DNA from: Squalus acanthias
Lineage: Eukaryota
Direction: 5' to 3'
Length of the DNA stretch: 64,000 bases
Assembly: GCA_030390025.1 (NCBI GenBank)
Contig: CM059431.1
Span: forward strand, 121,832,001 to 121,896,000
Below are positions 14,113-38,110 of the stretch, one piece after another. The position numbers were made by a program, and so were the translations under genes. The notes under the pieces are model-generated. The model searched no databases. It saw only the letters and a list, made by a program, of their open reading frames with translations, and was not told the DNA's origin. The stretch's first letter is position 1, and the number at the start of each line of letters is the position of its first letter.

Positions 14113-16974
14113 TCAGTACCCTGTACCTGCCTTCTCCCCATATCCCTTGATACCTTTAGCTTTAAGAAATATATCTAACTCATCCTTGAATATATTTAAT
14201 GACTTCGCCTCAACTACCTTCTGTGGTAGAGAATTCCACAGGTTCACCACTCTCTGGGTGAAGAAATTCTTCCTCATTTCTGTCCTAAATGGTTTACCCG
14301 TTATCCGTAGATTATGACCCCTGGTTCTGGACTCTCCGACCATCGGGAACATTCTTCCTGCATCTAGTTTGTCCAGACCTGTCAGAATTTTATATGTTTC
14401 GATGAGATCCCCTCTCAATCTTCTATACTCCAGTGAGTATAAGCCCAATCGACCCAATCTCTCTTCATATGTCATTCCTGCCATCCCAGGTATCAGCCTT
14501 GTGAATCTTCGCTGAACTCCTTCCATGGCAAGAACATCCTTCCTCAGATAAGGCGACCAAAACTGCACACAGTACTCAAGGTGTGGTCTCACCAAGGCCC
14601 TGTACAACTGCAGCAGGACATCCCTGTTCCTATACTCAAACCCTTTCGCTATGAAGGCCAACATACCATTTGCCTTCTTCACCGCCTGCTGCACCTGCAT
14701 GCTTACTTTCAGCGACTGGTGCACAAGGACACCCAGGTCTCGTTGCACTTCCCCTTCTCCCAATCTATTGCCATTCAGATAATAGTCTGCCTCTCTGTTT
14801 TTGACACCAAACTGGATAACCTCGCACTTATCCACATTATATTGCATCTGCCACGCTTCTGCCCACTCACCCAACCTGTCCAGATCATCCTGGAGTTTCT
14901 CGCTATCCTCCTCGCTGCACACACTCCCACCCAGCTTTGTGTCATCTGCAAACTTGGAGATATTACATTTAATTCCCTTATCTAGATCATTAATGTATAT
15001 TGTGAATAGCTGGGGTCCAAGGACCGATCCCTGCGGTACCCCACTAGTCACTGCTTGCCACTCGGAAAAAGACCCATTAATTCCTACTCTCTGCTTTCTG
15101 TCCGCCAACCAGTTCTCTATCCAAGTCAATACCTTGCCCCCAATCCCATGTGCCTTAACTTTACCCGCTAATCTCTTATGCGGGACCTTATCGAAAGCCT
15201 TTTGAAAGTCCAAATACACCACATCTACTGGTTCTCCCTTATCTATTTTCCCAGTTACATCCTCAAAAAATTCCAGTAGATTAGTCAAGCACGATTTACC
15301 TTTTGTAAATCCATGTTGATTTTGTCCGATCCTGTCACTGTTTTTCAAATGATCAGCTATTACATCCTTTATAATGGACTCTAGCATTTTCCCCACTACC
15401 GATGTCAGGCTTACCGGTCTGTAATTCCCCGCTTTCTCTCTACCACCCTTTTTGAATAGTGGGGTAACATTAGCTACCCTCCAATCCATGGGTACAGTTC
15501 CAGATTCCATCGAATGTTGGAAGATGATCAGCAATGCATCTACTATTTCTAGGGCCACTTCCTTAAGTACCCTAGGATGTAGATTATCAGGCCCTGGGGA
15601 TTTATCGGCCTTCAATACCGTCAATTTCCCCAACACCATTTCCCTGCAAATACTGATTTCTTTCAGTTCCTCCCTTTCATCAGACCATATGTTCTCCAAC
15701 ATCTCTGGGAGGTTATTTGTGTCCTCCTTTGTGAAGACAGAACCAAAATATGCATTTAATTGGGCTGCCATTTCTTTGTTCCCCATTATAACTTCCCCCG
15801 CTTCTGACTGCAAGGGACCTACACTTGATTTCACTAATCTTTTTCTCTTCACATATCTATAAAAGCTCTTACAGTCAGTTTTTATGTTCCCAGCAAGCTT
15901 ACTTTCATATTCTATTTTCCCCTTCTTAATTAATCCCTTTGTCCTCCTTTGTTGAATCCTAAACTGCTCCCAATCCTCAGGGCTACCGCTTTTTCTGGCC
16001 AATTTATATGCCCTCTCCTTGGATCTTATGCTATCCCTAATTTCCCTTGTTAGCCACGGTTGAGTCACCCTTTTTGTTTTATTCTTATGCCACACTGGGA
16101 TGTACAAATTCTGTAGTTCATCCATGCAGTCTTTGAATGTTTGCCATTGCGTATCCACCGTCAACCCCTTGAGTGACATTCCCCAATCAATCCTACCCAA
16201 TTCGCGCCTCATACCATCGTAGTTTCCTTTATTTAAATTCAGGACCCTAGTCTCTGATTCAACTACTTCACTCTCCATCCTAATGAAGAATTCTATCGTA
16301 TTATGATCACTCTGACCCAAGGGGCCTCGTACAACAAGATTGCTAATTAATCCTTTCTCGTTGCATAATACCCAGTCTAAGATGGCCTGATCTCTGGTTG
16401 GTTCCTCGACATATTGTTCCAGAAAACCATCTCGTAAACATTCTAGGAATTCCTCCTCCACAGTATTTTTACTAATTTGGTTAGCCCAATCTATATGTAA
16501 ATTAAAGTCACCCATGATGACTGCTGTGCCCTTACTGCATGCTTCTCTAATTTCCCTTTTAATGCCGTCCCCAACCTCCGTATTACTGTTTGGAGGTCTA
16601 TATACCACTCCCACTAACGTTTTCTGCCCCTTGTTATTTCTCAGTTCTACCCATATAGATTCCGCATCATCAGAGCTAATATCCTTCCTTTCAATTGTGT
16701 TAATCCCCTCTTTAACCAGCAATGCTACCCCACCTCCCTTTCTTTTTTGCCTATCTTTCCTAAATATTGAATAACCCTGGATGTTGAGTTCCCAGCCTTG
16801 GCCACCCTGGAGCCATGTTTCTGTAATCCCAATCAAATCGTATTCATTTACCTCTATTTGCGCAGCTAATTCATCTACCTTGTTCCGAATGCTCCTTGCA
16901 TTAAGACACAAAGCCTTCAGGCTTGTTTTTTTAATGCTCTCAAACCTATATGAATTATTATTTACTGTGACCAT
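14113..16974 (-). CDS. CR1 ORF2: apurinic-type endonuclease plus reverse transcriptase (953 aa)
   Basis: NARS, ITETW, GDFN and SDH endonuclease motifs. YLDFQKAFD, GVPQGSVLGP and FADD RT motifs. Frame is uninterrupted. Confidence 0.95.
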   Translation of the reverse strand: MVTVNNNSYRFESIKKTSLKALCLNARSIRNKVDELAAQIEVNEYDLIGITETWLQGGQGWELNIQGYSIFRKDRQKRKGGGVALLVKEGINTIERKDISSDDAESIWVELRNNKGQKTLVGVVYRPPNSNTEVGDGIKREIREACSKGTAVIMGDFNLHIDWANQISKNTVEEEFLECLRDGFLEQYVEEPTRDQAILDWVLCNEKGLISNLVVRGPLGQSDHNTIEFFIRMESEVVESETRVLNLNKGNYDGMRRELGRIDWGMSLKGLTVDTQWQTFKDCMDELQNLYIPVWHKNKTKRVTQPWLTREIRDSIRSKERAYKLARKSGSPEDWEQFRIQQRRTKGLIKKGKIEYESKLAGNIKTDCKSFYRYVKRKRLVKSSVGPLQSEAGEVIMGNKEMAAQLNAYFGSVFTKEDTNNLPEMLENIWSDEREELKEISICREMVLGKLTVLKADKSPGPDNLHPRVLKEVALEIVDALLIIFQHSMESGTVPMDWRVANVTPLFKKGGREKAGNYRPVSLTSVVGKMLESIIKDVIADHLKNSDRIGQNQHGFTKGKSCLTNLLEFFEDVTGKIDKGEPVDVVYLDFQKAFDKVPHKRLAGKVKAHGIGGKVLTWIENWLADRKQRVGINGSFSEWQAVTSGVPQGSVLGPQLFTIYINDLDKGIKCNISKFADDTKLGGSVCSEEDSEKLQDDLDRLGEWAEAWQMQYNVDKCEVIQFGVKNREADYYLNGNRLGEGEVQRDLGVLVHQSLKVSMQVQQAVKKANGMLAFIAKGFEYRNRDVLLQLYRALVRPHLEYCVQFWSPYLRKDVLAMEGVQRRFTRLIPGMAGMTYEERLGRLGLYSLEYRRLRGDLIETYKILTGLDKLDAGRMFPMVGESRTRGHNLRITGKPFRTEMRKNFFTQRVVNLWNSLPQKVVEAKSLNIFKDELDIFLKAKGIKGYGEKAGTGY

Positions 16975-17096
16975 GTTTGATTTAAACCGTTGAGTTCTTT
17001 GCCTTCTACTTTTGTTTTTCTCCTTCCTGTCTTTTGCTTTTATCCTTATTTCCCTTTCCTCTGTCTCCCTGCTCAGGTTCCCAACCCCCTGCCACT

Positions 17097-18047
17097 TTAG
17101 TTTAAACCCTCCCCAACAGCACTAGCAAACACTCCCCCTAGGACATCGGTCCCGGCCCTGCCCAGGTGCAGACCGTCCCGTTTGTACTGGTCCCACCTCC
17201 CCCAGAACCGGTTCCAATGTCCAAGGAATTTGAATCCCTCCCCCTTGCACCATTCTTCTAGCCACGTATTCATTTGAAATATCCTCCTATTTCTACTCTG
17301 ACTAGCATGTGGCACTGGTAGCAATCCTGAGATTACTACCTTTGAGGTCCTCTTTTTGAATTTACCTCCTAACTCCCTATATTCTGCTTTTAGGACCTCA
17401 TCCCGTTTTTTACCTATATCGTTGATGCCTATGTGCACCACGACAACTGGCTGTTCGCCCTCCCCCTCCAAAGTGTTCTGTAGCCGCTCCGAGACGTCCT
17501 TGACCCTTGCACCAGGGAGGCAACACACCATCCTGGAGTCTCGATTGCGGCCGCAGAAACGCCTATCTATTCCCCTTACAATTGAATCCCCTATCACTAT
17601 AGCTCTTCCACACTTTTTCCTCCCAGCCTGTGCAGCAGAGCCACCCATGGTGCCAGGAAGTTGGCTGCTGCCGCCTTCCCCTGATAAGTCATCCACCCCA
17701 ACAGCATCCAAAGTGGTATATCTGTTTGACAGGGGGATGGCCACAGGGGACCCCTGCACTACCTGCCTGCACCTCTTACTCTGCCTGGTGGTCACCCATT
17801 CACTTCCTGCCTATACACCCTTTACCTGCGGTGTGACCAACTCGCTAAACGTGTTATTCACGACGTTCTCAGCGTCGCGAATGCTCCAATATGCATCCAT
17901 CCGCAGCTCCAGCGCCGCAATGCGGTCCGTCAGTAGCTGCAGCTGGATACATTTCCCACACACATGGTCGTCAGGGACACAGGAAGTGTCCCTGATTTCC
18001 CACATATTGCAGTAGGAGCATATCACGGCGCCGAGATCTGCTGCCAT
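17097..18047 (-). pseudogene. CR1 ORF1 (CxxC zinc finger, leucine zipper, SGNH esterase) with a single premature TAG
   Basis: ORFs 17811-18047 and 17097-17795 are in the same frame, separated by one TAG. Motifs CSYC...CGKC, IGDSIVRG, HIGIND and DGLHL. Confidence 0.87.
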
Positions 18048-21189: not shown

Positions 21190-22371
21190 AAGTCTGATGA
21201 GGCGGTCACAGACCGACCTTGCAGAACACCGATTGAGCAGCTGTCTCCCCTGTCGCTGATGTTCGTCGTCCTGTTCCTCCTGCTCCTCTTCTTACTCTTC
21301 CTCCTAGTCCTCATCCTTGTTCTCCTCCTCCTCCTCCTGAGGTGGTGGAGTTATGCCTGGTGGCAATGGCTGCACCCTCATAATGGCCAAGTTATGCAGC
21401 ATGCAGCAGGCGACGACGAAATGTGACACCCGCTCAGCTGAGTACTGGAGGGCTCCTCCCGAGCGATCAAGACAGCGGAACCATTGCTTGAACACTCCGA
21501 TGGTCTGCTCAATGATGTTCTTGGTGGCAGCATGGCTCTCATTATATGAGTGCTGGCCAGGTGTGCTGGGGTTGCGGAGGGGAGTCATGAACCAGGTGGA
21601 GAGCGGATAGCCCTTGTCTCCCAGCAGCCAGCCGCGAGCTTGATGTGGTGGCTGGAACAAATTTGGCACACTGGTCTGGCGCAGGGTGAAGGCATCGTGG
21701 CTGCTGCAAGGATAGCAGGCATTGACAGTCAGGATTTGCTGCGTGTGGTCACACACCAACTGCACATTAAGTAGGTGGTAGCTTTTGCGGTTACGGAATA
21801 CCTCAGGATTGTTCTGAGGTGCCCGCAAAGTGACGTGGGTGCAGTTAATGGCGCCTTGCACCATTGGAAAGCCCGCTATCCTGGAAAAGCCACATGCACG
21901 CTCGCGCTGCTTCTTTCTGGTCATGGGGATGGAAATGTGGTCCCTTCTCCTTCTGTACAGAGCATCTGTGACCTGGAGGATGGAGCAATGGACAGAAAAC
22001 TGGGAGATGTTGGAGATGTTGCCTGTCACACACTGGAATGATCCGCTGGCATAGAAATTGAGGGCGACGGTGACCTTGACTGCCACTGAGAGAGCCATGG
22101 TGCTCCTGATCTAAGGCTCGAGGTCTGGCTGCAGGAGGTGGCAGAGCTCTGTGATCACGTTCTTGCTGAAGCGGAGCCTTCTAACACACTGGTCCTCAGT
22201 GAAATTCATGCGGGGGAACTGCTGCCAGAATACCCTGGGTGGGTAAGGCCTCCTGTTGAGCGCCCTGTTGGCCCTCCTACCTCTGGCCACATTTTGCACT
22301 CTTTCTCTGTGCCTCAGTTGCCTTCGACATTGACGCTGGAGAGCGAGGTCCAGTGCCAGTACAGCCCCCAT
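21190..22371 (-). pseudogene. Harbinger transposase, disrupted
   Basis: ORFs 22111-22410 and 21304-22098 are in frame across a stop. GAINCTHV, GDKGYP, IEQTIG and CCMLHNL motifs. Confidence 0.9.
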
Positions 22372-23991: not shown

Positions 23992-24327
23992 AAAAATTCT
24001 GACAGGGCTAGACAGACTGGATGCAGGGAGGATGTTTCCCCTGGCTGGGGGGTCTAGAACGAGAGGTCACAGTCTCAGGATACGGGGTAGGACATTTAGG
24101 ACTGAGATGTGGAATTCTCTACCACAGAAGGCTGTGGCGGCCAAGTCACTGAGTATATTTAAGAGGGATATAGATAGATTTCTGGACACAAAAGGCATCA
24201 AGGGGTATGGGGAGAGCGGGAATATGGTATTGAGATAGAGGATCAGCCATGATCAGATTGAATGGTGGAGCAGGCTCGAAGGGCCGAATGGCCTACTCCT
24301 GCTCCTATTTTTCTATGTTTCTATGTT
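23992..24327 (+). mobile_element. Short CR1 3' fragment
   Basis: MFPLAGGSRTRGHSL...WNSLPQ and a TTCTATGT tail. Confidence 0.8.
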
Positions 24328-24614
24328 AACTTTGTTACATTTTTACATTTCTAAGTCTTATTCTTAATCCAGAATATCCACCAAAATCAAATAAAAGTAC
24401 CGTTTGATCCCCGAGACTCTAAGAGTTAAAAACTTACAGAGCCTGCCTCTGAAGCTGAGAATCGCCTGCCCGTTCCAGCGACTTCTGACTTCCTATCTGA
24501 AAATCCCATATCTTATACTCTTTTTGCAGTGGTATCCCCTTTGAAGTTTTCTGCTGATGTAAGCTAATTATCTTTAGTCATTCTTTCTGTTGACTTCTTT
24601 CTATTCTTACCATT

Positions 24615-26280
24615 TGTAGAATTCGCAATATATCGCGATTTTATTAATAAGGAGAAAACACAGAGTTTCGTTCAAACAGCTTTTATTTCAGTAGAATGCT
24701 GGCAGGTTTAAAGTGGACACAAGCAGCCTGTAAAATGGCCGCCGCACCTCGTGACAGAACATTCTAGACTTTTCAACAGGCAGACAAGATGGCGTTCCAA
24801 TAAACATTTGTGCAAGATCGATTAAGATTCAGCACAGTGAAGATAATACACGAGACATTATGGGTTTGCAGTATACACATAGATACTGAAATCGGTCTCC
24901 CAGGTACAAAGGAAAGCCATTGTACCGAGTAATCAAGGGCCCATCCAAAAGACATTAATATGTAAAATCCCAACGACTCTACGATGAGAGAGCCGTTAGC
25001 AGGTAGTTATACAGGACACTTGGAAGCCCCAAACCCCTCCAGGGAGATTACCGACCGATTTAACAATGGGAGAAATATTAACAGGTACTCAGACATTTAC
25101 GAGTAGCCCCGAAACCCATTAAGAACGGAGATCACCCATACAAGACATTTGAGCGCCAAACCCTAAACAAAAGAATGGACATTATAGTTGGGCGGGAAAC
25201 GGAAGATTTTGCACTATAATTGCAGGCTCCAAACTGTCCATTCTTTCTCTTGCTGCTCTTATCATCGTGGCTGCTCCTGTGCTCTTATCCGGTCGATTCG
25301 TAACCTCGTGGCTGCTCCTGTGTACTCGTAGTTGGGCTCGCTCCTGCTTGCCTGTTGCCTCTTCTGAAAAGACTGTTGAACTTTCTGATCCGTTCGGATC
25401 TATCTCGTGTCGCGTAACGAAGACCTATATTGGTAACCGGTATCGGAACCAAAAGGCCCGAGAAGAGATGAGATGAGATGAGATGAGAAGAGAGGAAGAC
25501 CATATCCATCGCCATGGTCAGTAAATCCCGACCGCGCCTGTAGGTCGATTAGCCAAGTTTTCCTCGCCAGGAAGACTTCTTCGAACTTGCAAGGAAACAT
25601 ATCGTATCGACGATATCGACAACTGTGCTCGAAGAGTACCTGTTAAACCAACCAATATAGATCTTCATCACAGCAGACGTTCCAGCCTGCTAGCCGGAGC
25701 AGCAGAAGCAAGTAAACAAGTGGGACCAGGAGATCTCCTGACCGACACGTGGGTGCTGCGGTGAAAAGCATCCGATCAGCTATTCGGAATTTCTCCGAGT
25801 TATCACGAGTGGTGAGCATGAGTCTCGAAATCCTACGAATCTAGTTTAGGATAGATATTGATAGGGGAGGGTTTAAGGATTAAGGATATTTGTAATGTGT
25901 GCCCCTATTTACTTTGTGCCGTTCGTTCCTCGTTTCCCTAAGATCGACTATATAACTGTTTGTAAGATTGTACTGTCATTAATCTGTGCTTATGACATGT
26001 ATTTCATAATCTTAAGTATCATGCAATAAAGATTTTCCATTTCGTACCATTCAAACCAAGTCTACATGAGTTTCATCTCCATTACTGCTCTCGCATCTAA
26101 GTCCAGTGTCTAGAACCGTAAGGGAGAGTGATTCGAACCACTCACAGGTGTGTCTAGTGTTCCCAGACTGGCTGGAGACCAGAACAGGCAACAAGGCCTA
26201 GACCCGCACTGACATACAGGCTGCACAGAGCCGCGTGAATCTCACAGGCTGCGAGACACGCAGGGTCAGAATCCCTTACA
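24615..26280 (+). repeat. 5' LTR (1666 bp)
   Basis: TGTAGAATTC...CCCTTACA, a direct repeat of 35709-37374. TATA-like TATAAT at 25215 and AATAAA at 26025. Confidence 0.97.
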
Positions 26281-26284
26281 GAAA

Positions 26285-28096
26285 ATGGCGACCGCGGCAG
26301 GACACTGGCAGCGAGAGGGTAGTGTGTTAGATTTTGGAATGACTGTACGAAATGTTATGCAGGAAAAGATAGCGGATTATGTGTTTGGAAAGGTTAATCT
26401 AACTAAGAAATGGATAAGTGAATTGTTAGCGGATAAGAGCCCACTAGAGGCAGCTGAAAGGTGGACAGATAGTAAAGAACATAGAAAGACACTTGAGAAA
26501 GCAGTCTGGCTTATGTGTTACAAAAGGCAGGTTCAGATTTCAAACCAGACCATTACAGCGCTAGTAGCTCGAATCAGTCATTTAGAGGGAGAAATGGAGG
26601 AGAAGGTTTCTGGAGGGGAGGTGCTCATTAAGAATTTAAATGAGTTACACCAAGAAAGCCAGGAAGTCTCCAGTCACCTTAAAACAAGGATAGATTATCT
26701 CGAGTGCCAGGTCACTGAGGCAAAATTGAATGAGAGCAGGTTAAAGGAAAGATGTAACCGCCAAGCTGCCCAGATAAGAACTCAAGAAGAGAGCTTGACG
26801 GGGGTTAGGGCGGCATATAAGTTGGCCCTTGAGGATAAGTTTCAGGGAGCCGATCATAGCGCCTGCCAAAGGGAGATAGAGCACCTCAAAAAGGCCGTGA
26901 ACAATGCGAACGGCATGGTGTGCCTTATCAATCCGTCGGCGCACCAGCCGCTAGTAAATGAGAGATTTAGAAAATCCCCACCAAGTAAAGCAGAAGGAGT
27001 AGTAGTCACTGCGCCCTCCGCGCCACCCAGCTATTCAGAAACCTGGGTTAGGGAGGAAGCAATGGAAGAAACAAAAGAGCCCATTGAAAAAGAAGTAGGA
27101 AAGGGATCGTTATATCCAGTAACGGATATTAAAAGGGGCCCAAGCAGAAACGGTGGGGAAGAACCGGGGGATCTCCTCGGACAGCTGGTGTTGCCTCACA
27201 GTTCACATCAGCTGAGAGCTATGATAAATCACGTACGGAAGCTGACCGAGGCAGACGACCCTTCCGTACATTTCAGAGAAGTTGAGCAAGCCGCAGCCAT
27301 TAACGGCTGCGATGATGGGGAAACAGCAAAAATGCTGCTGTTCTCATTAGACAGCTCGGTCCTTCAGTGTCTCTCAGGCGAGAGCAAGAGGGGAACCAAG
27401 AGTTATGAGGAATTAAAGAATGAGGTCCTGGAAGTGTTGGGGGCGAACGACGAAGGTCCGTTTGCTAGAGTGGGACAGACAGTGCAGATGGAGGGAGAAC
27501 CCCCGAAGGTTTTTGCCGACAGGCTGTGGCCAGTATATGAGCGCAGCTGTCTAGGTGCGCCCGAGCGCGAAGATGTGGAAGGTTTAGCTTTAACTCATTG
27601 GCTTAGGTGCATAATAGCCAACAGTTTACCAGCCGTCAGAGAGCAGGCAAAAGCATGGTTTGATCCCAATGACCCCAACATTACGGAAGAGTCGGTCTTG
27701 AATCGACTCACGTTAGGTTATCGCAATATAAGGGGTATGGCAACACGTCCCCTTAAGGGAAGAGTACATGAGGTACGACCCGCAGCCCCGTATCAAAGAG
27801 AGTGGCATCAGGAGGGTAATCGCGCCCCACAGGCAGGTAATGCTTGTTACGGGTGTGGGAAGACAGGGCACTGGCGCAAGCATTGCAGGAACCCTTGGAA
27901 GGATTCCAAGGATAAAAATCCCGCGGTCCGAGCCCAGGCGCCTGTCCCGGCTAAGGAAGCCAAGGCACCCACCCCTCCTGACGACCTCGAAGCAGTGTTA
28001 GGAGCCATGCGCAAGCTGGTCTTGAATGCGCGTGGACAGGTGGCGGTCGCAACCGGCCCCGTAGGTGCCGCAGGACCGTCTAATAGTACCCCATGA
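26285..28096 (+). CDS. gag: Gag polyprotein (coiled coil, late domains, capsid-like region, CCHC nucleocapsid); true start may be the ATG at 26340
   Basis: 603-aa ORF immediately after the LTR. CYGCGKTGHWRKHC zinc knuckle. QMEGEPPKVFADRL resembles a major homology region. Confidence 0.9.
   Translation: MATAAGHWQREGSVLDFGMTVRNVMQEKIADYVFGKVNLTKKWISELLADKSPLEAAERWTDSKEHRKTLEKAVWLMCYKRQVQISNQTITALVARISHLEGEMEEKVSGGEVLIKNLNELHQESQEVSSHLKTRIDYLECQVTEAKLNESRLKERCNRQAAQIRTQEESLTGVRAAYKLALEDKFQGADHSACQREIEHLKKAVNNANGMVCLINPSAHQPLVNERFRKSPPSKAEGVVVTAPSAPPSYSETWVREEAMEETKEPIEKEVGKGSLYPVTDIKRGPSRNGGEEPGDLLGQLVLPHSSHQLRAMINHVRKLTEADDPSVHFREVEQAAAINGCDDGETAKMLLFSLDSSVLQCLSGESKRGTKSYEELKNEVLEVLGANDEGPFARVGQTVQMEGEPPKVFADRLWPVYERSCLGAPEREDVEGLALTHWLRCIIANSLPAVREQAKAWFDPNDPNITEESVLNRLTLGYRNIRGMATRPLKGRVHEVRPAAPYQREWHQEGNRAPQAGNACYGCGKTGHWRKHCRNPWKDSKDKNPAVRAQAPVPAKEAKAPTPPDDLEAVLGAMRKLVLNARGQVAVATGPVGAAGPSNSTP
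26286..26303 (+). promoter_or_regulatory. Primer-binding site (tRNA-Ser-like, imperfect)
   Basis: TGGCGACCGCGGCAGGAC begins 5 nt after the LTR. It resembles the complement of tRNA-Ser 3' ends (TGGCG...GGCAGGA). Confidence 0.65.
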
Positions 28097-31000
28097 CTAG
28101 AACCGGCGCAGCCCGTCTACCTGTGTCCGCTTAGCTATGACGCGTGGAGGCGACCTGTGGTGGAGATGGAGGTAGAGAAACAGAAGGGTAGTTATTTGTT
28201 GGACACGGGAGCTTCTTGCACCATAATCCATACAGATAACCCTTTCGACTCGCCGCTATCTACCAAGGTCCCATTCACGTTAGCAGGGTTCACAGGAAAA
28301 GAACAGGCTGGCACGTTTTCCCTTCCGCTATCCATTCGTTTAGGAACACTTCGCCTTAAGTGGAAGTGTATACTGATGGCATGGCAAAAGGGGGGTGGAA
28401 GAGGTATCCTCGGGTCCGATCTCCTAGCGGGACACGGGATCCTCGTGGACCTCAGAAATCACTGTCTCTGGGGGGCTAAAGGTGAAAAAGGCGAGGTAAT
28501 AGTGATTCCGGGGGAGGAAGAAACAGGGGTCCTGTGTACCGTACAGCCATCCGGAGGCTACGACCTCAGGCTTATGGTCGCAGATGTCCCAACGGACATG
28601 CAAACGTACGTGTCAGATAATATGCACGCGTTTGCAACCCACAAGCACGATTGTGGGAGAGTGGTCGGGTTTGAGGTCAGCGTAGATGGGGACCCCATGA
28701 CCCGACCCCAAAAGCAGTATAACTTCCCCAAAGAAGCAGAACCCGATATGGAGACAGCAATGTCCTCCTTGGTGCAGCAGGGCGTGTTGAGGCCAATAGC
28801 CACACACGTAAACTCCCCATTATGGCCGGTTAGGAAGCCGGATAATTCGTGGAGGGCCACGGTGGACTACAGAGTCCTTAACAGTAACATTCCCGCCTGC
28901 GCGCCCACAGTAGCAGCAGTTGCTGACCTAATAGGGAGCATCCCAGCGTCCGCGACCACGTTCACGGTGCTGGATATCTCGAACGGTTTTTGGTCCATCC
29001 CGCTGCGGCGAGAGGACCAGTACAAGTTTGCCTTTACTTTCAAAGGACAACAGTACACATGGAACTGTCTGCCACAGGGTTTCCACAATAGCCCCAGTAT
29101 TTTTCATCAGTGTATGGCAGGAAGTTTAAAGGAGTTTAGTCAGCCCAATCAGATAGTACAGTATGTGGATGATTTGCTCCTATTTACGGACTCAAGGGAG
29201 GAGCACGGACCACTACTGGACGAGTTATTGGAGCTGTTAGCGAGAAAGGGTTTTAAAATAAACCCTAAGAAAGCACGTATCGGTCAGCGGGAAGTAAAGT
29301 TCCTGGGACTGACCATACGCGCTGGGGAAAGAGCCATAGACAAAGCAAGGAGGGAGTCGGTGCAAGAATTACCGATTCCCAACAACGTAAGGGGTGTGAG
29401 GTCCTTCTTGGGACTGACCGGTTACTGCAGGGATTTTATCGAAGATTATGCGGCCACAGCGGCGCCGCTCCTCCGACTCCTCCATAAGGGGGTGGAGTGG
29501 CTTTGGGACGAGGGCTGCCAAGCAGCCTTCGAGAAGTTAAAAAGGGATCTGCAGACCGCGCCAGCCTTAGGGGCCATAGATGGGGGGAAGGAGTTTTTCC
29601 TGGAGGTCGCTGCCAGCGGAGACAGCTTAAGCGCCGTGCTGCTCCAAGAGCGTCACGGCAAGCTGAGGCCGGTTGTCTATTCATCCAGGGTATTAACGGA
29701 TGTGGAGAGAAGTTTCTCCAATTGCGAAAGGCACCTTTTAGCCACGCATTGGGCTGTGAAAAGATCAGCGATCTTCACAGGGCTCTCTCCCATCACTCTC
29801 CTCACACATCACACACCAACTAAGATGCTTCTGGATGGGAGGATTAAAGACGGGACCGTAAGCAGCGCACGCATTGCGCGTTGGACCCTTCTTCTCTCCC
29901 AGTTGGATCTTAGAGTAAAAGGTCTTTGCGAGCCAAGGCTTGCGGCCAATCTGGTATACCCCGGTACAGCCCACCGGTGTTCGGTGGAAGGGGTGTGGGA
30001 CGTCAACATAGGTTTACGGGCCGGGATACATCCCACTGGGCGCGAGATTTATGTTGATGGGTCTAGCACAGTATCTGCTGGCGAGCGACTCACAGGGTGT
30101 GGAGTTTATGACCCTGCGGCAGACCTTGCCCTGGCGATCAAGCTCCCCAGCACTATGAGCGCGCAGCAAGCCGAGCTGTCTGCCGTGGTGTACGTTGTGA
30201 CCCACCCAGACATTTTCCCAACCCCATATACGATTTGCTCGGACAGTATGTTCACCTGCAATTCGTGTACGGAATACCTGGCCATTTGGTCCCGCCGCGG
30301 ATACACCTCCGCGGACGGGCGACCTTTGACGGTGAAGCCCTTGCTGGAAAAGATCTTAGCAGCAGCGGTGGGGGAGGAAGGAGAGATTTTCATCCATAAG
30401 GTGAAAGCTCACTCCTCCACAGAGCCCCGTGGGGAGGGCAACCGGCAGGCGGATGCGCTAGCCAGGGAGGGTGCCCGCGACGGCACTTTCTGGAACCCCT
30501 ATAGGACCGGACCCATAGCAGCGGTCCGAGGCGGGGACGGGATTCCCGGGAACACCAGGGTAGCATTGCCCCTAGACCTCAAGACCGTCCAAACCCAGGA
30601 TCCCGCCCTAAAAGCAGTCCTAAAAACGATTGCTGAAGGGAGGCAGGTAGAAGGTCCGTACAGTACGGCAACCCTCTCAGTTAAGGAAGGCATGCTGTTC
30701 CGCGAGGAGCAGTGGGTTGTGCCACAGCAGCACAGGAGGGAATTCCTCCAGTTGGCTCACGAGGGACCAGGGGCAGGGCACCCCGGGCCCGAGGTTACCT
30801 GGCAACGGGTAGAGCAAGCGGGATGGTGGCCAGGGCTCAGGGAACAAGTCCGCGAGTTCTGTGCAAACTGTCTTGTGTGCGCTGCAAACAACCCAGACCC
30901 CCAGAAAAGGAAGGTGCCCATGGGACACGTAAGAAGGGTAGAGGGACCATGGCAGTCGATACAGATCGACTATATAGGACCCCTGCCCACCACCCAGGGA

Positions 31001-32593
31001 GGTTATAAGTACTGCCTCGTCCTGGTGGATGTGTTTTCCAAGTGGGTGGAAGCCTTCCCTTGTCGAACAGCTACGGCACTGGGTACAGCAAAAATCTTGG
31101 TCCGGGAAGTGTTCTCGCGGTGGGGACTCCCCCGTTTTGTGGAGTCAGACCAAGGGAGTCATTTCACCGGCCAGGTGATGCAGAACACCCTCATGCTTTT
31201 GGGCATTGAAGGGAAGTGGCACGTAGCACACAATCCCCAGTCATCCGGGATTGTTGAACGTATGAACCGGACCCTGAAGGAGAAATTGAGGAAAGAGACT
31301 AGGAACTCGCCCCAAAAATGGGCGGAAGTTCTGCCTTTAGTCCTCATGGGGGTCCGGGCCAGTCAGTCAAAAAGTACGGGGTACTCCCCGCACGAGGTAA
31401 TGACTGGGAGGCTCATGCGAACCCCCACCCATGTGCTAGCACCGGTGCTCACTGAGGGTCAGCTCCAAGAGATAAGCAGGGACAAGTTCGCCCAGACTCT
31501 CTTGGAGCGCCTGAAGCAAGTTTATGAGCAGGCGGCTGGGAACATGGGAAGGCAGCATCAGGGCAATCGCTTGTTGCTGGAACCCCGCAAAACGCGGGAG
31601 TGGGAAGTAGGAGACCAGGTCATGGTCAGAAACTATGCCAGAGTAGGGAGTCTGGAACCACTGTATATGGGACCCTACAACATTGTAGACAAGGCGAGTC
31701 CCATGGTTTACGCCGTAAAAGTACCTCGGCGCACTAAGTGGTTCCACATAAACCAATGCAAACTGTACCAGCCAGGTGCGCAGGGGAAAACTACAGGGGT
31801 AAATCCCGCCAATGGGAAAGCACAGCCCCAGGTAGGACCACAAGGCACACAGGCAGGCATAGCAGCTTGCATCAGGGGAAGGGACATCCCGGACGATCAT
31901 GCAGCGTTTTTCTGGAATTGGGGGTTAGATGAGGAAGAATTCAGGGTACCCGGGTCAGATGAGGATAGTGCAGATGAGGATAGTGATGACGACGGGTGGT
32001 TTCGGAGGAACGGTCCCTTTTACGATATGGAGGGGACGGGGGCTGCAGGTAGAGATCCACACAGGGTGGATACACGAGCTGCAGGTCCCGAAGACAGGAG
32101 GGAGGAGCTAGAGGAGGCAGGGCCAGCCGCTATGGGAGCACAGAGAGTACCGGTGTGGCTCCCAGAGATGTGGCCGCCCGCTTTGAACGTCCAGTCCTCA
32201 GGGGAGGCAGAGATCACGAGTGAAGGGCCGCCTGCTGGGCCGAGCAGGGCGGAGCCACGAACTGCCAGCCCCGAGGTTAGGGAGGCGGAGTCAGCGGAGG
32301 CGGAGCCAGCGACTGTGATGGAACCCCAGGTCATCCCGATGGAAGTCTCGGAACCCGGTCCGTCCGTCACGGAAACCCCGCCCATAGCAACTCCCCGTAG
32401 GTCAAGTAGAGAACCCCAGCCCAGGAGGATGTGGTCATGTCCCCAGACTGCCCCAAGGCGAAAATTTAAGGTTAAGATAACCCAGATACAGACCGGCCAC
32501 ATCGCAGCAGTAACAGGCTGCGGCAGATCAGAGGGAAGGGTCAGTGCCCTCCCACCGTCGGGAAGAGCTCGCAGCAGCCTTCTCAGAATTTAA
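28097..32593 (+). CDS. pol: Pol: protease, RT, tether, RNase H, integrase and C-terminal extension; in frame with gag
   Basis: LLDTGAS; LPQGF and YVDD; IYVDGSS..AQQAEL..SDS..GNRQAD; H-H-C-C, QIDYIGP/SDQG/VERMN and GPY module. No stop from 28097 to the end. Confidence 0.95.
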   Translation, partial: LEPAQPVYLCPLSYDAWRRPVVEMEVEKQKGSYLLDTGASCTIIHTDNPFDSPLSTKVPFTLAGFTGKEQAGTFSLPLSIRLGTLRLKWKCILMAWQKGGGRGILGSDLLAGHGILVDLRNHCLWGAKGEKGEVIVIPGEEETGVLCTVQPSGGYDLRLMVADVPTDMQTYVSDNMHAFATHKHDCGRVVGFEVSVDGDPMTRPQKQYNFPKEAEPDMETAMSSLVQQGVLRPIATHVNSPLWPVRKPDNSWRATVDYRVLNSNIPACAPTVAAVADLIGSIPASATTFTVLDISNGFWSIPLRREDQYKFAFTFKGQQYTWNCLPQGFHNSPSIFHQCMAGSLKEFSQPNQIVQYVDDLLLFTDSREEHGPLLDELLELLARKGFKINPKKARIGQREVKFLGLTIRAGERAIDKARRESVQELPIPNNVRGVRSFLGLTGYCRDFIEDYAATAAPLLRLLHKGVEWLWDEGCQAAFEKLKRDLQTAPALGAIDGGKEFFLEVAASGDSLSAVLLQERHGKLRPVVYSSRVLTDVERSFSNCERHLLATHWAVKRSAIFTGLSPITLLTHHTPTKMLLDGRIKDGTVSSARIARWTLLLSQLDLRVKGLCEPRLAANLVYPGTAHRCSVEGVWDVNIGLRAGIHPTGREIYVDGSSTVSAGERLTGCGVYDPAADLALAIKLPSTMSAQQAELSAVVYVVTHPDIFPTPYTICSDSMFTCNSCTEYLAIWSRRGYTSADGRPLTVKPLLEKILAAAVGEEGEIFIHKVKAHSSTEPRGEGNRQADALAREGARDGTFWNPYRTGPIAAVRGGDGIPGNTRVALPLDLKTVQTQDPALKAVLKTIAEGRQVEGPYSTATLSVKEGMLFREEQWVVPQQHRREFLQLAHEGPGAGHPGPEVTWQRVEQAGWWPGLREQVREFCANCLVCAANNPDPQKRKVPMGHVRRVEGPWQSIQIDYIGPLPTTQGGYKYCLVLVDVFSKWVEAFPCRTATALGTAKILVREVFSRWGLPRFVESDQGSHFTGQVMQNTLMLLGIEGKWHVAHNPQSSGIVERMNRTLKEKLRKETRNSPQKWAEVLPLVLMGVRASQSKSTGYSPHEVMTGRLMRTPTHVLAPVLTEGQLQEISRDKFAQTLLERLKQVYEQAAGNMGRQHQGNRLLLEPRKTREWEVGDQVMVRNYARVGSLEPLYMGPYNIVDKASPMVYAVKVPRRTKWFHINQCKLYQPGAQGKTTGVNPANGKAQPQVGPQGTQAGIAACIRGRDIPDDHAAFFWNWGLDEEEFRVPGSDEDSADEDSDDDGWFRRNGPFYDMEGTGAAGRDPHRVDTRAAGPEDRREELEEAGPAAMGAQRVPVWLPEMWPPALNVQSSGEAEITSEGPPAGPSRAEPRTASPEVREAESAEAEPATVMEPQVIPMEVSEPGPSVTETPPIATPRRSSREPQPRRMWSCPQTAPRRKFKVKITQIQTGHIAAVTGCGRSEGRVSALPPSGRARSSLLRI

Positions 32594-32905
32594 AGGGGCC
32601 GCCCTGAGAACGGGCGGCACTGTAAAGTTATAGTTCTAAGTTTTAAGTTTATCGTTCAAGGTTAAGTTTTAAGTTTATAGTTCAAGGTTAAGTTTATAGT
32701 TTTATTAAGGTTAAGTTTGTAGTGTTTTTAACAGAAAACGATAAAATGATGGGAGCTTTAAAGATAGGTTTAGTGAAAAGTTTATACAGCAAACGTGGAA
32801 GTTTACGTGAGGCGAGGTCAGGGGACCCGCTCACCCTTCACAGAAGCCAGAGACTCTTGCGAGGCTGGCTACCTCATTCTATCTGATCACAGGAACCAAG
32901 GAAGG

Positions 32906-35257
32906 ATGGAACGAATTCTAGTATTGCTCGTGGCAATCGGATGTGGATTGGCCTATCGAGGCCGCACCAAGGATGTCGTGGTGTTTGGATGTTCCGGGGA
33001 CACGGCCCCCATCGCGGTGGATGGGACCGGAAGACGGGAGGCAGAGGAGACCAGCACCTATTTCCACAAGGGAAGGTGGCCAGGATGGCTGGGAACGAAC
33101 TCAACGGAGTATTCCAGCACATCGGGGTTTGCCTACAAAGAGACTTCTTTACTGTGCCCCAAAGTAAGGATCATCGCACCCAGGATCAGCGTCACCGTCG
33201 GCAAACGGATTTGTTTGACTTGTAGTGGGAAGGTCCCATTGAGCCGATGGTGGTGGCTGCGAAAGCTGAGCAAAACTATGAGGAACTCTTCGGTCGAGTG
33301 GGAACGACTGGGTAATAATACCCATCGGACAATTACGGGGACAGACGGACAAGTGAAAGTCTGTTGGGACAAATGGTGGGAACCGGATGAGGGAATTTAT
33401 GTATGTATGTGGGGGTCAAAGTACGTTTGCCCCAAAGGCATCTCCATATTTTTTATTAATCAATGGCAGGATAACGGACAGGGGATGAGGTGGGATGCGA
33501 GCACCAGGGGGTGCGGAGCCCCATTCTCCCCGATCCCAGTAAATGCCACTGAGCTCATTACGCGCCCACGCAAAGCCCCGCCCACGATTCCGGTGGTTCT
33601 AGCTGAGGAAGAAGGGTGCCCTAAAACTAGTAAGGGACCCGGGAATGGTTTGGTACTGGTCCCCACAGACCAGATACTATTTCAGGGGGTACATTACGCG
33701 GTGGCCTCGGTGATTTTAAATCTCACCGAGGTGCGGTTACCAGAGTGGTGCCCCAAAAAGACGGAACAGTTGTACCAGGTCCTGTTGACCAAGATGTTCA
33801 GACAATTTTACGAATTCGATTTCGCGGAAATTGATAAAACAAGTTTGTACACCGCACCACAGGAAGTTTTGGATCAAGTAGGGAGGCAAAGAAGGGGTTT
33901 GGTGAACGATGCGTTCACTGCTTTTAACACAGGTACATCTGTGGTCAACGCTCTAGACAGTGTGGAGCTGCAGACCCAGATTAATGGTTTAAAGACACAA
34001 TTAAAGGACATTCTAACAGATGAGAATAAAGTGGTAGGGTCGGGTCTACACGAGGACCAAGCCATGACCCTCCATTTAAAGGAAATTATAGCAGAGTTGG
34101 AGAAACATGCAAAGACGGTAAATGCCCTGATTAGGGAAGATCGGAATGCATCCGATCAAGCTGCGCAGAACGAGGTGTGCGTGCTTTACGGGGCGTGGTT
34201 ACTGGGCGAGGGCCGCAGTAATTTGGAGGATTTAAAACAAGGTTTGGTTCCGTCCTGGATAAGTAACAAACACCTGCGGGAGCTCCACCCTTTTCAGAAC
34301 GCATTAAGTCCATGCCAGCTCAGGCTAGCTTCAGAAGCATACCCAGTCCCCGTGGACTGCGGACGTTCAAACCATACTATTATGGGAATAGTATTACGTA
34401 TGCCGGTTTTGGGCGACACAGCAAAGCCCGCCCCGGTGTATCGGGTAGAGAACATTGGTGTCATTCAGGGGGGAGCCCACATTCGTTATGCAGCGGTTCC
34501 ACCTTACGTCATCCGCTGGGAGCAAACGATGACAGGTACAGATCTCTCTGGTTGTCGTGGCAGGGGAGCACACATAATACTGTGCCCCCAGCACTTGAAT
34601 GCCTTTTTAACACCACAGTGCGGGTTCAGAACGACTGGCGCCAAGTCCATGAATTGCACCATGGAGGCAATGGCACAAGATCATGTGCCTCCGCAGGTAG
34701 CATACATCGGGGGTGGAACATATTGTGTTACCACTGCAGCGCAACACTACCAGCATGGAAACCGTAGCCGGTGTCCGGTGAGTGACAGCAGTTTCTGTTT
34801 TAAACCCAGGGCGGAAGTTCAAGTAGCACAACAGCGAATTATCCCAATCCCTGAACCATCCACTGTTCATCTCACAGTAAAAGAGAATTTCACCGACTTG
34901 CAGCGATTCGTCGCGCATTTTGGATACCTCATTCCCCCTCTCCCTGAACACCTCACCAAACTTCTAAAAGCCGTCGCGGTGTCACAGAAACATTTTTACA
35001 CATTAGAGCAGAAAACTGTCGAAATAGGAACAGACATTCTGGATATAGTAGTTCCACCGTGGTGGAATCTGTTCACTAATATTGAAGTACCTTCATGGAT
35101 CAGAATAGCCTCCCACATTTTAGTCGTATGCCAAGTTTTCATTGTAGTGTACCTATTGGTTGTACATTGTAAAAGAGACAAACGCCTCACCAAGCATGAA
35201 AACACGGGAGAGTGGCGAGAACGTTACGTGCGCGTGCACGATGAGAGCACCGTGTAA
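32906..35257 (+). CDS. env: Envelope glycoprotein (783 aa): signal peptide, Ig-like domain, RQRR cleavage site, class I fusion subunit, TM anchor
   Basis: MERILVLLVAIGCGLA signal, several NxS/T sequons, RQRR|GLVNDAFTAF, heptad repeat, Cys-rich region and TM ILVVCQVFIVVYLLVV. Splice acceptor CACAG ends at 32892. Confidence 0.88.
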   Translation: MERILVLLVAIGCGLAYRGRTKDVVVFGCSGDTAPIAVDGTGRREAEETSTYFHKGRWPGWLGTNSTEYSSTSGFAYKETSLLCPKVRIIAPRISVTVGKRICLTCSGKVPLSRWWWLRKLSKTMRNSSVEWERLGNNTHRTITGTDGQVKVCWDKWWEPDEGIYVCMWGSKYVCPKGISIFFINQWQDNGQGMRWDASTRGCGAPFSPIPVNATELITRPRKAPPTIPVVLAEEEGCPKTSKGPGNGLVLVPTDQILFQGVHYAVASVILNLTEVRLPEWCPKKTEQLYQVLLTKMFRQFYEFDFAEIDKTSLYTAPQEVLDQVGRQRRGLVNDAFTAFNTGTSVVNALDSVELQTQINGLKTQLKDILTDENKVVGSGLHEDQAMTLHLKEIIAELEKHAKTVNALIREDRNASDQAAQNEVCVLYGAWLLGEGRSNLEDLKQGLVPSWISNKHLRELHPFQNALSPCQLRLASEAYPVPVDCGRSNHTIMGIVLRMPVLGDTAKPAPVYRVENIGVIQGGAHIRYAAVPPYVIRWEQTMTGTDLSGCRGRGAHIILCPQHLNAFLTPQCGFRTTGAKSMNCTMEAMAQDHVPPQVAYIGGGTYCVTTAAQHYQHGNRSRCPVSDSSFCFKPRAEVQVAQQRIIPIPEPSTVHLTVKENFTDLQRFVAHFGYLIPPLPEHLTKLLKAVAVSQKHFYTLEQKTVEIGTDILDIVVPPWWNLFTNIEVPSWIRIASHILVVCQVFIVVYLLVVHCKRDKRLTKHENTGEWRERYVRVHDESTV

Positions 35258-35696
35258 TCGGAAAATGGCGTCACTCCCGCTCGCCACGTGCGCCGCGGAA
35301 GCCTGTACTCATATAAGATTTTCAGAGATTGTAAATACGTTGGGAACTCGACATGTTTTAAGAGTTGGTGTTGATTATTTTATGGTGATGGTGTTACAGT
35401 TAGAATTGATTGTTTGGTTTTGGGTTCTGTTTCTCCTTTCCCTGAATAAAAGATGAATATACAGGTGATACGAGAGGCATCGGCCTGGTTACGCCGGGAA
35501 GGAAAACAAGTGGTGTAAGTTTAAGGGCAAATAATGCCTACGGTGATATAAAATGTAATTTCTTGGGAAATGAGGACGACACAGAGACCCTAGCTAGGTT
35601 AAAGTTATGGGATTAATTTGCTGGATTCGGGGAAAAATCGAGATAATATTGCTCACCACTATGATTTTTGATACGATAAGCGGAGTTATTCGCATC

Positions 35697-35708
35697 AACA
35701 GGAGGGAC
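35697..35708 (+). promoter_or_regulatory. Polypurine tract
   Basis: AACAGGAGGGAC lies directly before the TG of the 3' LTR. Confidence 0.7.
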
Positions 35709-37374
35709 TGTAGAATTCGCAATATATCGCGATTTTATTAATAAGGAGAAAACACAGAGTTTCGTTCAAACAGCTTTTATTTCAGTAGAATGCTGGCAGG
35801 TTTAAAGTGGACACAAGCAGCCTGTAAAATGGCCGCCGCACCTCGTGACAGAACATTCTAGACTTTTCAACAGGCAGACAAGATGGCGTTCCAATAAACA
35901 TTTGTGCAAGATCGATTAAGATTCAGCACAGTGAAGATAATACACGAGACATTATGGGTTTGCAGTATACACATAGATACTGAAATCGGTCTCCCAGGTA
36001 CAAAGGAAAGCCATTGTACCGAGTAATCAAGGGCCCATCCAAAAGACATTAATATGTAAAATCCCAACGACTCTACGATGAGAGAGCCGTTAGCAGGTAG
36101 TTATACAGGACACTTGGAAGCCCCAAACCCCTCCAGGGAGATTACCGACCGATTTAACAATGGGAGAAATATTAACAGGTACTCAGACATTTACGAGTAG
36201 CCCCGAAACCCATTAAGAACGGAGATCACCCATACAAGACATTTGAGCGCCAAACCCTAAACAAAAGAATGGACATTATAGTTGGGCGGGAAACGGAAGA
36301 TTTTGCACTATAATTGCAGGCTCCAAACCGTCCATTCTTTCTCTTGCTGCTCTTATCATCGTGGCTGCTCCTGTGCTCTTATCCGGTCGATTCGTAACCT
36401 CGTGGCTGCTCCTGTGTACTCGTAGTTGGGCTCGCTCCTGCTTGCCTGTTGCCTCTTCTGAAAAGACTGTTGAACTTTCTGATCCGTTCGGATCTATCTC
36501 GTGTCGCGTAACGAAGACCTATATTGGTAACCGGTATCGGAACCAAAAGGCCCGAGAAGAGATGAGATGAGATGAGATGAGAAGAGAGGAAGACCATATC
36601 CATCGCCACGGTCAGTAAATCCCGACCGCGCCTGTAGGTCGATTAGCCAAGTTTTCCTCGCCAGGAAGACTTCTTCGAACTTGCAAGGAAACATATCGTA
36701 TCGACGATATCGACAACTGTGCTCGAAGAGTACCTGTTAAACCAACCAATATAGATCTTCATCACAGCAGACGTTCCAGCCTGCTAGCCGGAGCAGCAGA
36801 AGCAAGTAAACAAGTGGGACCAGGAGATCTCCTGACCGACACGTGGGTGCTGCGGTGAAAAACATCCGATCAGCTATTCGGAATTTCTTCGAGTTATCAC
36901 GAGTGGTGAGCATGAGTCTCGAAATCCTACGAATCTAGTTTAGGATAGATATTGATAGGGGAGGGTTTAAGGATTAAGGATATTTGTAATGTGTGCCCCT
37001 ATTTACTTTGTGCCGTTCGTTCCTCGTTTCCCTAAGATCGACTATATAACTGTTTGTAAGATTGTACTGTCATTAATCTGTGCTTATGACATGTATTTCA
37101 TAATCTTAAGTATCATGCAATAAAGATTTTCCATTTCGTACCATTCAAACCAAGTCTACATGAGTTTCATCTCCATTACTGCTCTCGCATCTAAGTCCAG
37201 TGTCTAGAACCGTAAGGGAGAGTGATTCGAACCACTCACAGGTGTGTCTAGTGTTCCCAGACTGGCTGGAGACCAGAACAGGCAACAAGGCCTAGACCCG
37301 CACTGACATACAGGCTGCACAGAGCCGCGTGAATCTCACAGGCTGCGAGACACGCAGGGTCAGAATCCCTTACA
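35709..37374 (+). repeat. 3' LTR (1666 bp)
   Basis: Direct repeat of the 5' LTR, with four transitions seen by eye. Followed by CATT. Confidence 0.97.
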
Positions 37375-38110
37375 CATTAGTTCAGCTGCTAACTCTCAGA
37401 ATCCTGTCTGCTGTATAGGTGTTTAATAACTTATCATATAAAATGTTATTACAGATTTATCTCTTTGATGCCATTCTTATGAAGGTCTTCAATTCAATTC
37501 TTAATATCCCCTTAACTGGTTATAAGCAGACGTTATGTCTACTAACTGTTCCATTTTCAATGCAAACACAATGTGATTGCTTGGTGTCATCTTCAAAGTG
37601 TTCTGTAGGTATTATATTTACAATATGTAAATCAAAACCACTTCAACCAGGGTGTTCCATGCATTTCTTAGCTACTTCAATTGGTTGTATTTATAATTGT
37701 GTTTCCCTTTTCATTTGATGTTACTTTTACAAAGGCACATGGTTTTTTAATGTTCTGTGTTTCTGTTCGAAGTGTTATTTTTAGCACTTTAAACTGGGTA
37801 TAGCATTGTGTTGGTTCCAAACTGCAGACTCCTTGGAAGAAAGCCTTTGCTTCTTCGATAGGACCATTGTCTCAGTGTCAATAACCATTTCCCATTTCAA
37901 AAGCTTGTATGGTGTCTACAGCTTTGTGTCAACAAGCTCATCTTATCTCAGAAGCCTGTATTTACAGCTTTGTGTCATTGAGGCTTTTAGATTTTTAAAC
38001 CCAGTTTGTCATATTTTAATGTCAGAATTCTGTTCATAGGATGGTGTATTTTTCTGAAATATGGCTATTCCTTTACAACGGGAGGCGCAAAGGAGCCCAA
38101 TATTTAGCCC

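Follow-up and report, generated by a model that had tools for sequence, protein, structure and literature searches.

Snakehead retrovirus (SnRV) stands between the epsilon-like and the spuma-like retroviruses, has one zinc finger and relies on stop-codon read-through (PMC1224870, excerpt). Its clade consists of endogenous retroviruses (ERVs) of reptiles, birds, amphibians and fish (PMC12193657, excerpt), was named clade Huo by Xu et al. (2018) and has members in every major lineage of vertebrates (PMC6001957 and PMC8922424, excerpts), and Han (2015) described SnRV-like ERVs in a chimaera (PMC4422223, excerpt). Two other groups of retroviruses are of interest for their envelope proteins (Env): the lokiretroviruses, which Wang and Han did not find in any of the six chondrichthyan genomes that they screened (PMC7947760, supplement), and the foamy viruses, whose Env was united by Fernandez et al. 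(2024) with the paramyxovirus fusion (F) protein and the coronavirus spike in one subclass, orthoretrovirus Env forming another (PMC11468914, excerpt). Here we analyse a provirus of 12,760 bp at positions 24615-37374 of a 64,000-nucleotide stretch of the Squalus acanthias genome (GCA_030390025.1, contig CM059431.1; hereafter the window). It is probably a young, complete member of a very large ERV family in a cartilaginous fish, lying outside the lokiretroviruses, most likely within the SnRV-related clade, and carrying an F-type Env.

The provirus is young and structurally complete (Table 1). It has the paired TG..CA long terminal repeats (LTRs), target-site duplication, tRNA-complementary primer-binding site (PBS) and polypurine tract of a Retroviridae provirus, together with the gene order of that family: gag, pol (protease (PR), reverse transcriptase (RT), tether, RNase H and integrase (IN), hence a dual RNase H) and env. 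The initial annotation had described these LTRs, a CATT duplication, a PBS, a polypurine tract and open gag, pol and env within 12,760 bp; all were found again, and its coordinates are right. The LTRs differ at 4 of 1,666 positions (99.76% identity), by transitions only, two of the four at CpG sites as judged by eye. Their Kimura two-parameter divergence of 0.0024 corresponds to an insertion about 0.5 to 5.5 million years ago, depending on the rate, the slowest rate being the one that Han assumed for sharks (PMC4422223, excerpt). The 5' LTR contains a TATA-like TATATAA at 25949 and an AATAAA at 26025, and its U3/R/U5 boundaries are putative. The gene for the tRNA-Arg(TCG) to which the PBS is complementary was located by a pattern search of the provirus's own genome (a 3.71-Gb assembly) and confirmed with ARAGORN; the PBS starts five bases past the 5' LTR, and reverse transcription would be primed by this host tRNA. 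SnRV is likewise primed by tRNA-Arg. The host tRNA-Arg(TCG) genes themselves are repeated in tandem over long arrays, about every 1,623 bp, on contig C26 at about 38.99-41.88 Mb (loci L024-L026), and occur also at locus L023; the 20-base pattern of their 3' end has 435 matches in the genome, and one array unit also carries a tRNA-Ser(GCT).

Gag has an N-terminal coiled-coil-like stretch and one CCHC knuckle (27845-27886, Gag residues 521-534), with no significant Pfam match. Its frame is open already from 26213 within U5 and has its first ATG in overlap with the PBS; translation may therefore truly begin further downstream, at the ATG of 26339 or 26357. Because gag and pol share one frame across a TGA, Gag-Pol would be produced by read-through of this codon in its TGA-CTAG context. 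The active-site motif of RT is YVDD by motif scan, and the C-terminal GPY motif of IN is present in the Pol translation as LYMGPYNIVDK; a second GPY returned by the scan, at Pol residue 853, lies upstream of the integrase and was set aside as a chance occurrence.

Both RT and IN place the provirus among retroviruses other than lokiretroviruses. RT trees were inferred from 67 rows (quick) and 55 rows (careful), with rows labelled by sequence traits and not by named reference viruses. The lokiretrovirus rows are a killifish protein, P0127, and P0133 and P0136, which group with it; they are called lokiretroviral because five P0127 RT peptides recur in the Wang and Han supplement (5 to 64 occurrences, four of the five at 38-64, the contexts inspected being near-identical). 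Gamma-like rows are those with an integrase C-terminal domain of the murine leukaemia virus (MLV) type, one of them scoring 493 bits against MLV RT; foamy-like rows are pol sequences upstream of env pieces of the provirus's own genome that match Pfam Foamy_virus_ENV; and the Ty3/gypsy outgroup is made up of rows that have no second RNase H. The careful tree unites the lokiretrovirus rows (97/96), and a split that the 67-row tree shares separates lokiretroviruses and Ty3 from all other dual-RNase-H rows (100/99). The provirus RT falls inside the latter group, together with P0004, an unnamed protein 89-90% identical to it. A forced clade of provirus and lokiretroviruses was rejected (log-likelihood difference 49.2; approximately unbiased (AU) test, p 0.0036), and the IN tree, which contains no true CGIN1/NYNRIN genes, is congruent with that of RT in keeping the provirus apart from the three lokiretrovirus rows. 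Provirus and P0127 also differ in their pattern of bit scores against solved RT structures: 246 for Ty3, 238 for MLV and 218 for foamy virus with the provirus, as opposed to 290 for Ty3, 208 for foamy virus and 163 for MLV with P0127.

These results do not sustain the initial placement of the provirus in or near the lokiretroviruses, for which the double RNase H, the YVDD and GPY motifs and an F-like Env had been invoked. The first three are widely shared among retroviruses, and foamy viruses, too, have an F-like Env (PMC11468914, excerpt). Lokiretroviruses and the provirus do have much in common: the order LTR-gag-pol-env, the dual RNase H and an Env of the paramyxovirus F kind with basic cleavage site, fusion peptide, coiled coil and anchor, a fold that has been reported as distinctive for lokiretroviruses (PMC7947760). 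Since Wang and Han detected none in their six chondrichthyan genomes, a lokiretrovirus in a cartilaginous fish would also be new. The provirus, however, has its RT and IN in the sister group, lacks an smc gene and encodes an Env in which, as in 24 of its relatives and in the genome, no match to the Fusion_gly family (PF00523) was found. Its Env family was traced to cartilaginous fishes, frogs and coelacanth, with no ray-finned fish or lamprey, in the 20 of 51 Env relatives looked up. Membership in the lokiretroviruses was accordingly rejected on RT position and on Env similarity to PF00523, and we regard a lokiretrovirus, or a close sister lineage extending the group to cartilaginous fishes, as scarcely credible.

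Within the non-lokiretroviral group, the nearest named Pol proteins belong to frog and coelacanth ERVs labelled 'NYNRIN-like' (an automatic NCBI name), with 43-46% identity over RT-RNase H. The provirus lies near the base of a branch (74/98) whose other members are the gamma-like rows, a Xenopus clade and one more, unnamed clade. It is not itself a gamma-like class I element, having no PF18697 domain and scoring 238 bits against MLV RT versus 493 for a PF18697-bearing relative.

The RT motifs point to SnRV. DISNGFW, LPQGFH, QQYTW, IFHQ and KINPKK occur, among the RT reference alignments of Wang and Han, in the SnRV rows only (3/3, 3/3, 3/3, 3/3 and 2/2, respectively), and a by-eye comparison with the printed SnRV row gives an identity of about 40%. 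The provirus also resembles SnRV in its position between spuma-like and epsilon/gamma-like rows, in its one nucleocapsid zinc knuckle and in its in-frame gag-pol arrangement across a stop codon (PMC1224870, excerpt). From these sequence traits, the provirus most likely belongs to the SnRV-related clade and its lineage is most likely one already known. It differs from SnRV in the gag-pol junction, UAG-GGC in the latter and TGA-CTAG here (PMC13517186, excerpt), and in its 1.67-kb LTRs, cartilaginous-fish host and thousands of copies. CmiERV lineage I of the elephant shark, compared by description only, is likewise a cartilaginous-fish ERV reported to cluster with SnRV, but its copies are few and more than 50 million years old (PMC4422223, excerpt), in contrast to the 99.76% LTR identity and the thousands of copies found here. 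An epsilon-related affiliation (clade Mu, with WDSV, the walleye dermal sarcoma virus, and Xen1) in place of the SnRV-related one would account for several of the same observations: read-through of the gag stop is common to epsilon-related viruses, with TGA in SSSV (salmon swim bladder sarcoma virus), the zebrafish ERV ZFERV and a toad ERV (PMC13517186, excerpt); chimaera ERVs of epsilon-like lineages are known (PMC4422223, excerpt); the provirus sits on the branch towards the gamma-like rows; and a sixth RT motif, FAFTF, is present in the reference rows of both SnRV and WDSV. Yet five of the six shared motifs are exclusive to SnRV among those rows, the WDSV rows have YMDD where the provirus has YVDD, and the provirus branches outside the group formed by the Xenopus clade, the unnamed clade and the gamma-like rows, so that we consider the epsilon-related affiliation unlikely.

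Env begins with a signal peptide, carries RQRR immediately before a hydrophobic GLVNDAFTAF..., has long helices at residues 384-445 and 680-716 (residue numbers being the Met-based number + 1) and a cysteine-rich beta region, and ends with a 29-residue tail after the anchor. Sequence and model thus predict the landmarks of F-type proteins: a basic site with fusion peptide, two heptad regions and a C-terminal anchor. Env has no significant Pfam match and, in a single-sequence search, no PDB match. A search of a representative library returned 51 relatives, 24 of which entered the alignment for an AlphaFold2 (AF2) model. Foldseek matched this model best to paramyxovirus and pneumovirus F proteins, first among them that of human parainfluenza virus 3 (E 2.9e-11), and in a second structure comparison (VIA) the 50 listed entries were without exception F proteins of paramyxoviruses or pneumoviruses (Z 9.2-13.3), the alignments comprising 270-346 residues between model residues 244-719 and F from about residue 23 on. 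The alignment starts upstream of the cleavage site, and the part preceding cleavage contributes to the three-domain F core. By its modelled fold, Env belongs to the F subclass (class Ib), which bears out, at the level of the fold, the F-like Env of the initial annotation. The protein would be cleaved at its furin-like site and would act as an F-type class I fusion protein, with the fusion peptide followed by a long heptad helix, a beta-rich core, a second heptad and the anchor.

PF00523 gave no match with Env at E up to 10, with the 24 relatives at E up to 1, or in the genome; Pfam returned a lone Baculo_F match among the 24 relatives (0.0011); and the language-model neighbours of Env fall in clusters with Baculo_F, Gypsy and Fusion_gly (0.93-0.95), a lead only. 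Searched as a profile, the Env family hits chain 8rm1_D, a foamy virus Env in its post-fusion form (E 4.4e-5), and, weakly and over the same region, the foamy-like Env pieces of the provirus's own genome (hhalign E 3.7e-4, probability 36%). The N-terminal part of about 225 residues is poorly modelled (a separate AF2 model of the first 232 residues has a predicted local distance difference test (pLDDT) score of 41.7), with weak immunoglobulin-like hints in an Ig_3 match (E 0.45) and in the automatic UniRef name 'Ig-like domain-containing protein' of the relative P0057; this extra module is a candidate for receptor binding. Among the named Env relatives, that of the skate Rhinoraja longicauda is closest (76% identity); sharks (six genera), frogs (three genera) and the coelacanth supplied the others among the 20 of 51 matches looked up, the skate and shark relatives agreeing with the cartilaginous-fish host previously surmised. 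Neither RT nor Env brought up a relative in scans of viral contigs. An 86-codon open reading frame (ORF) at 35196-35456, which overlaps the end of env as the SnRV 3'ORF does, was rejected because its frame is shifted or stopped in four of four other copies.

The similarity to foamy virus Env raises the alternative that the provirus is a foamy-like, spumaretrovirus-related ERV, such as those that Wang, Chen and Cui reportedly described from cartilaginous fishes in 2023. Its long LTRs and 12.8-kb genome fit this alternative, as do the profile match to 8rm1_D and the weaker one to the foamy-like Env pieces, and the best solved match for its IN is the integrase of prototype foamy virus. Compared with foamy virus Env (PDB 8RM0/8RM1), the provirus Env has the same F-type core and a faint sequence similarity over the beta-rich region with its conserved cysteines; however, its extra module is N-terminal and not inserted between the subunits, its N-terminal hydrophobic stretch resembles an ordinary signal peptide, and a leader-peptide subunit is not evident. 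The expression of Gag and Pol appears orthoretrovirus-like, with a CCHC knuckle and an in-frame pol, unlike spumaviruses, which lack a zinc finger and whose pro ORF is spliced separately (PMC1224870, excerpt). The genome does hold separate, decayed elements that match Foamy_virus_ENV (11 matches), whereas the provirus Env has no match to that family (PF03408); their Pol is only about 25-36% identical to that of the provirus and stands elsewhere in the RT and IN trees, the provirus RT not grouping with these own-genome loci in a tree that holds no exogenous foamy virus. A foamy-like origin is highly improbable on these grounds. The decayed foamy-like ERVs occupy loci L011-L022 (contigs C4, C6, C17, C20, C22 and C23), and the 11 matches of their env pieces pass the Pfam cut-off.

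Taken as a member of the SnRV-related clade, then, the provirus would be new, very young and very abundant within a clade that is most likely known, and its F-like Env is apparently unreported for that clade in the literature searched: we found no report of an F-like Env in SnRV-related or cartilaginous-fish ERVs, in a search that left subscription journals mostly uncovered. The claim of a lokiretrovirus thereby becomes that of a known-clade member with one unreported feature. From the difference between foamy (F-like) and orthoretrovirus Env, Fernandez et al. (2024) argued for two separate origins and for the subfamily split (PMC11468914, excerpt). An F-like Env in a virus with orthoretrovirus-style Gag-Pol and an RT on the epsilon/gamma side raises the directly testable question of whether the F type is ancestral or has been exchanged between lineages. 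More tentatively, the F-type Env could extend beyond lokiretroviruses and foamy viruses to the orthoretrovirus side, in cartilaginous fishes, frogs and coelacanth, as a candidate for the ancestral retroviral envelope; the present family would then be infectious now, or have been so until very recently, and would have reached thousands of germline copies with env kept.

The provirus is no singular survivor; copy counting showed it to be one of thousands of near-identical copies. Counted over the whole genome and allowing one mismatch at most, 24-mers had 1,898 occurrences for a site in RT, 3,167 for one in env and 1,031 for one in the insert of a pol-less derivative, with zero for reversed-pattern controls. 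Among the best-scoring copies, all 57 scored env and all 37 scored pol sequences are free of stop codons. In four of four fetched copies, the derivative has identical breakpoints and the same unrelated 245-bp insert in place of most of pol, with gag and env open. Copies of the element also occur in pairs and triplets about 7.7 kb apart, forming tandem arrays with shared LTRs. Tandems of the derivative (LTR-internal-LTR-internal-LTR, about 7.7-7.8 kb) are seen, for example, at C1:204981789-204999059, and at least eight tandem env pairs are present among the 57 scored env matches. The family would have spread recently to its approximately 1,900 pol-carrying copies, and the gag+env derivative, with about 1,000 copies, was presumably mobilised by Pol from full copies; without pol, it is an unusual kind of dependent element.

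Selection on env was assessed in 15 colinear copies, out of 20 fetched and 5 dropped, with the window provirus as reference. Differences shared by several copies comprise 23 synonymous and 4 nonsynonymous changes (ratio about 0.05), and singletons 17 and 19, respectively (ratio about 0.33). As a control, the shared LTR differences read in three mock frames gave 13-17 synonymous and 35-38 nonsynonymous changes (ratio 0.61-0.89; Fisher p 1e-5 to 7e-7 for env versus LTR). As shared env differences are mostly synonymous relative to the LTR, purifying selection acted on the coding capacity of env in the lineages from which new copies arose. Reinfection would be expected to leave such a pattern, which points to cycles of reinfection. 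Very large ERV families, as Magiorkinis and colleagues reportedly found in 2012, tend to have lost env; some 3,170 env-bearing copies with such constraint run counter to that pattern. An alternative is purely intracellular multiplication of the family, in the manner of an LTR retrotransposon, with env open through youth and not through use. Copies in the thousands, frequent tandems about 7.7 kb apart and the abundant pol-less derivative would all be compatible with this, and neither RNA nor virion evidence was obtained. Against it stand the shared env differences (23:4 as opposed to 13-17:35-38 in the LTR control), the open env of 57 of 57 scored copies and the derivative, which has dispensed with pol and still has open env and gag; we judge purely intracellular multiplication to be distinctly unlikely. 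No env-splice or empty-site joint was present among the joints listed in contigs of four sequencing runs, 60 further joints standing outside that list, and no RNA run is on record among the runs that hold words of the element. At least half of the element's sampled words occur in runs under four organism labels from seven studies, so the family is not confined to one labelled organism.

A number of observations weigh against the reading of the provirus as a reinfecting, SnRV-related virus with an F-type Env. On the side of its placement, the group submitted to the AU test was chosen after the tree had been seen; support is weak (64/21) for pairing the provirus with the frog and coelacanth clade and stands at 74/98 for the group that contains the gamma-like clade; and the trees hold neither SnRV, WDSV and Xen1 nor an exogenous foamy virus, the assignment to SnRV coming from motifs, published traits and the position among labelled rows. 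SnRV, moreover, encodes an Env with a tail of 136 residues and carries four additional ORFs (PMC12193657, excerpt), in contrast to 29 residues and no conserved extra ORF in the provirus. As to expression, the PBS and gag have no untranslated leader between them unless 26339 or 26357 is the start of translation, the RNA fold downstream of the TGA is not significant (-30.1 kcal/mol, z -1.33, 18 of 200 shuffles folding as well), and no splice donor for an env mRNA was located. The Env model has a mean pLDDT of 58.5 and is reliable only at about residues 240-650. The copies compared for selection are those most like the window provirus and not a random sample of the family, and purifying selection on env alone is no proof of infection between cells.

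Table 1 Features of the provirus in window coordinates.
Feature	Position	Strand	Basis or remark
Target-site duplication, left copy (CATT)	24611..24614	+	identical four bases 3' of 3' LTR
5' LTR, 1,666 bp, TG..CA	24615..26280	+	direct-repeat comparison
gag, 603 codons from first ATG	26285..28096	+	ends with TGA at 28094-28096
Primer-binding site	26286..26303	+	18/18 complementary to host tRNA-Arg(TCG) 3' end plus CCA
gag-pol junction TGA-CTAG	28094..28100	+	pol in same frame beyond TGA
pol, 1,498 codons	28097..32593	+	
Stretch replaced by unrelated 245-bp insert in high-copy pol-less derivative	28129..31748	+	
PR	28145-28429	+	Pfam
RT	28829-29317	+	Pfam
RNase-H-like tether	29504-29902	+	Pfam
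Second RNase H	30044-30475	+	Pfam
IN zinc domain	30719-30895	+	Pfam
IN core	30947-31237	+	Pfam
SH3-like/GPY C-terminus of IN	31640-31768	+	Pfam
Acidic, proline-rich Pol tail	31784-32590	+	
env, 783 codons plus stop	32906..35257	+	ATG at 32906; separate frame from pol
F-like core of Env	33635-34864	+	
RQRR furin-like site	33884-33895	+	
Fusion peptide	33896-33955	+	
Env membrane anchor	35099-35167	+	residues 733-755
Polypurine-like tract AACAGGAGGGAC	35697..35708	+	adjoins 3' LTR (sequence context)
3' LTR, 1,666 bp	35709..37374	+	4 transitions vs 5' LTR
Target-site duplication, right copy (CATT)	37375..37378	+	

In the pol tail, at 32507-32547, about 39 bp are duplicated in tandem in many of the other copies, which shows as a 'goes back' joint in the four sequencing runs and in overlapping alignments of fetched copies; the Pol frames of 1,494, 1,498, 1,507 and 1,511 codons among copies fit this duplication.

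No host gene was recognised in the window; judged by relatives of the element alone, the host would be a cartilaginous fish, probably a skate or ray. On the minus strand at 14116-17810 lies a long interspersed nuclear element (LINE) with an open ORF of 1,002 codons (endonuclease plus RT), preceded by a 237-codon ORF for a GDSL-type esterase, and ORFs for Harbinger/PIF-type DDE transposases and an ORF with a Myb/SANT-like DNA-binding domain are found at 21307-22110, 8669-9235 (minus) and 59731-60348 (minus). In the 5' flank, at 24001-24467, the summed contig depth exceeds that of the provirus several-fold to tens of thousands of times in all four runs, and the provirus is therefore inserted in another, still more abundant repeat.

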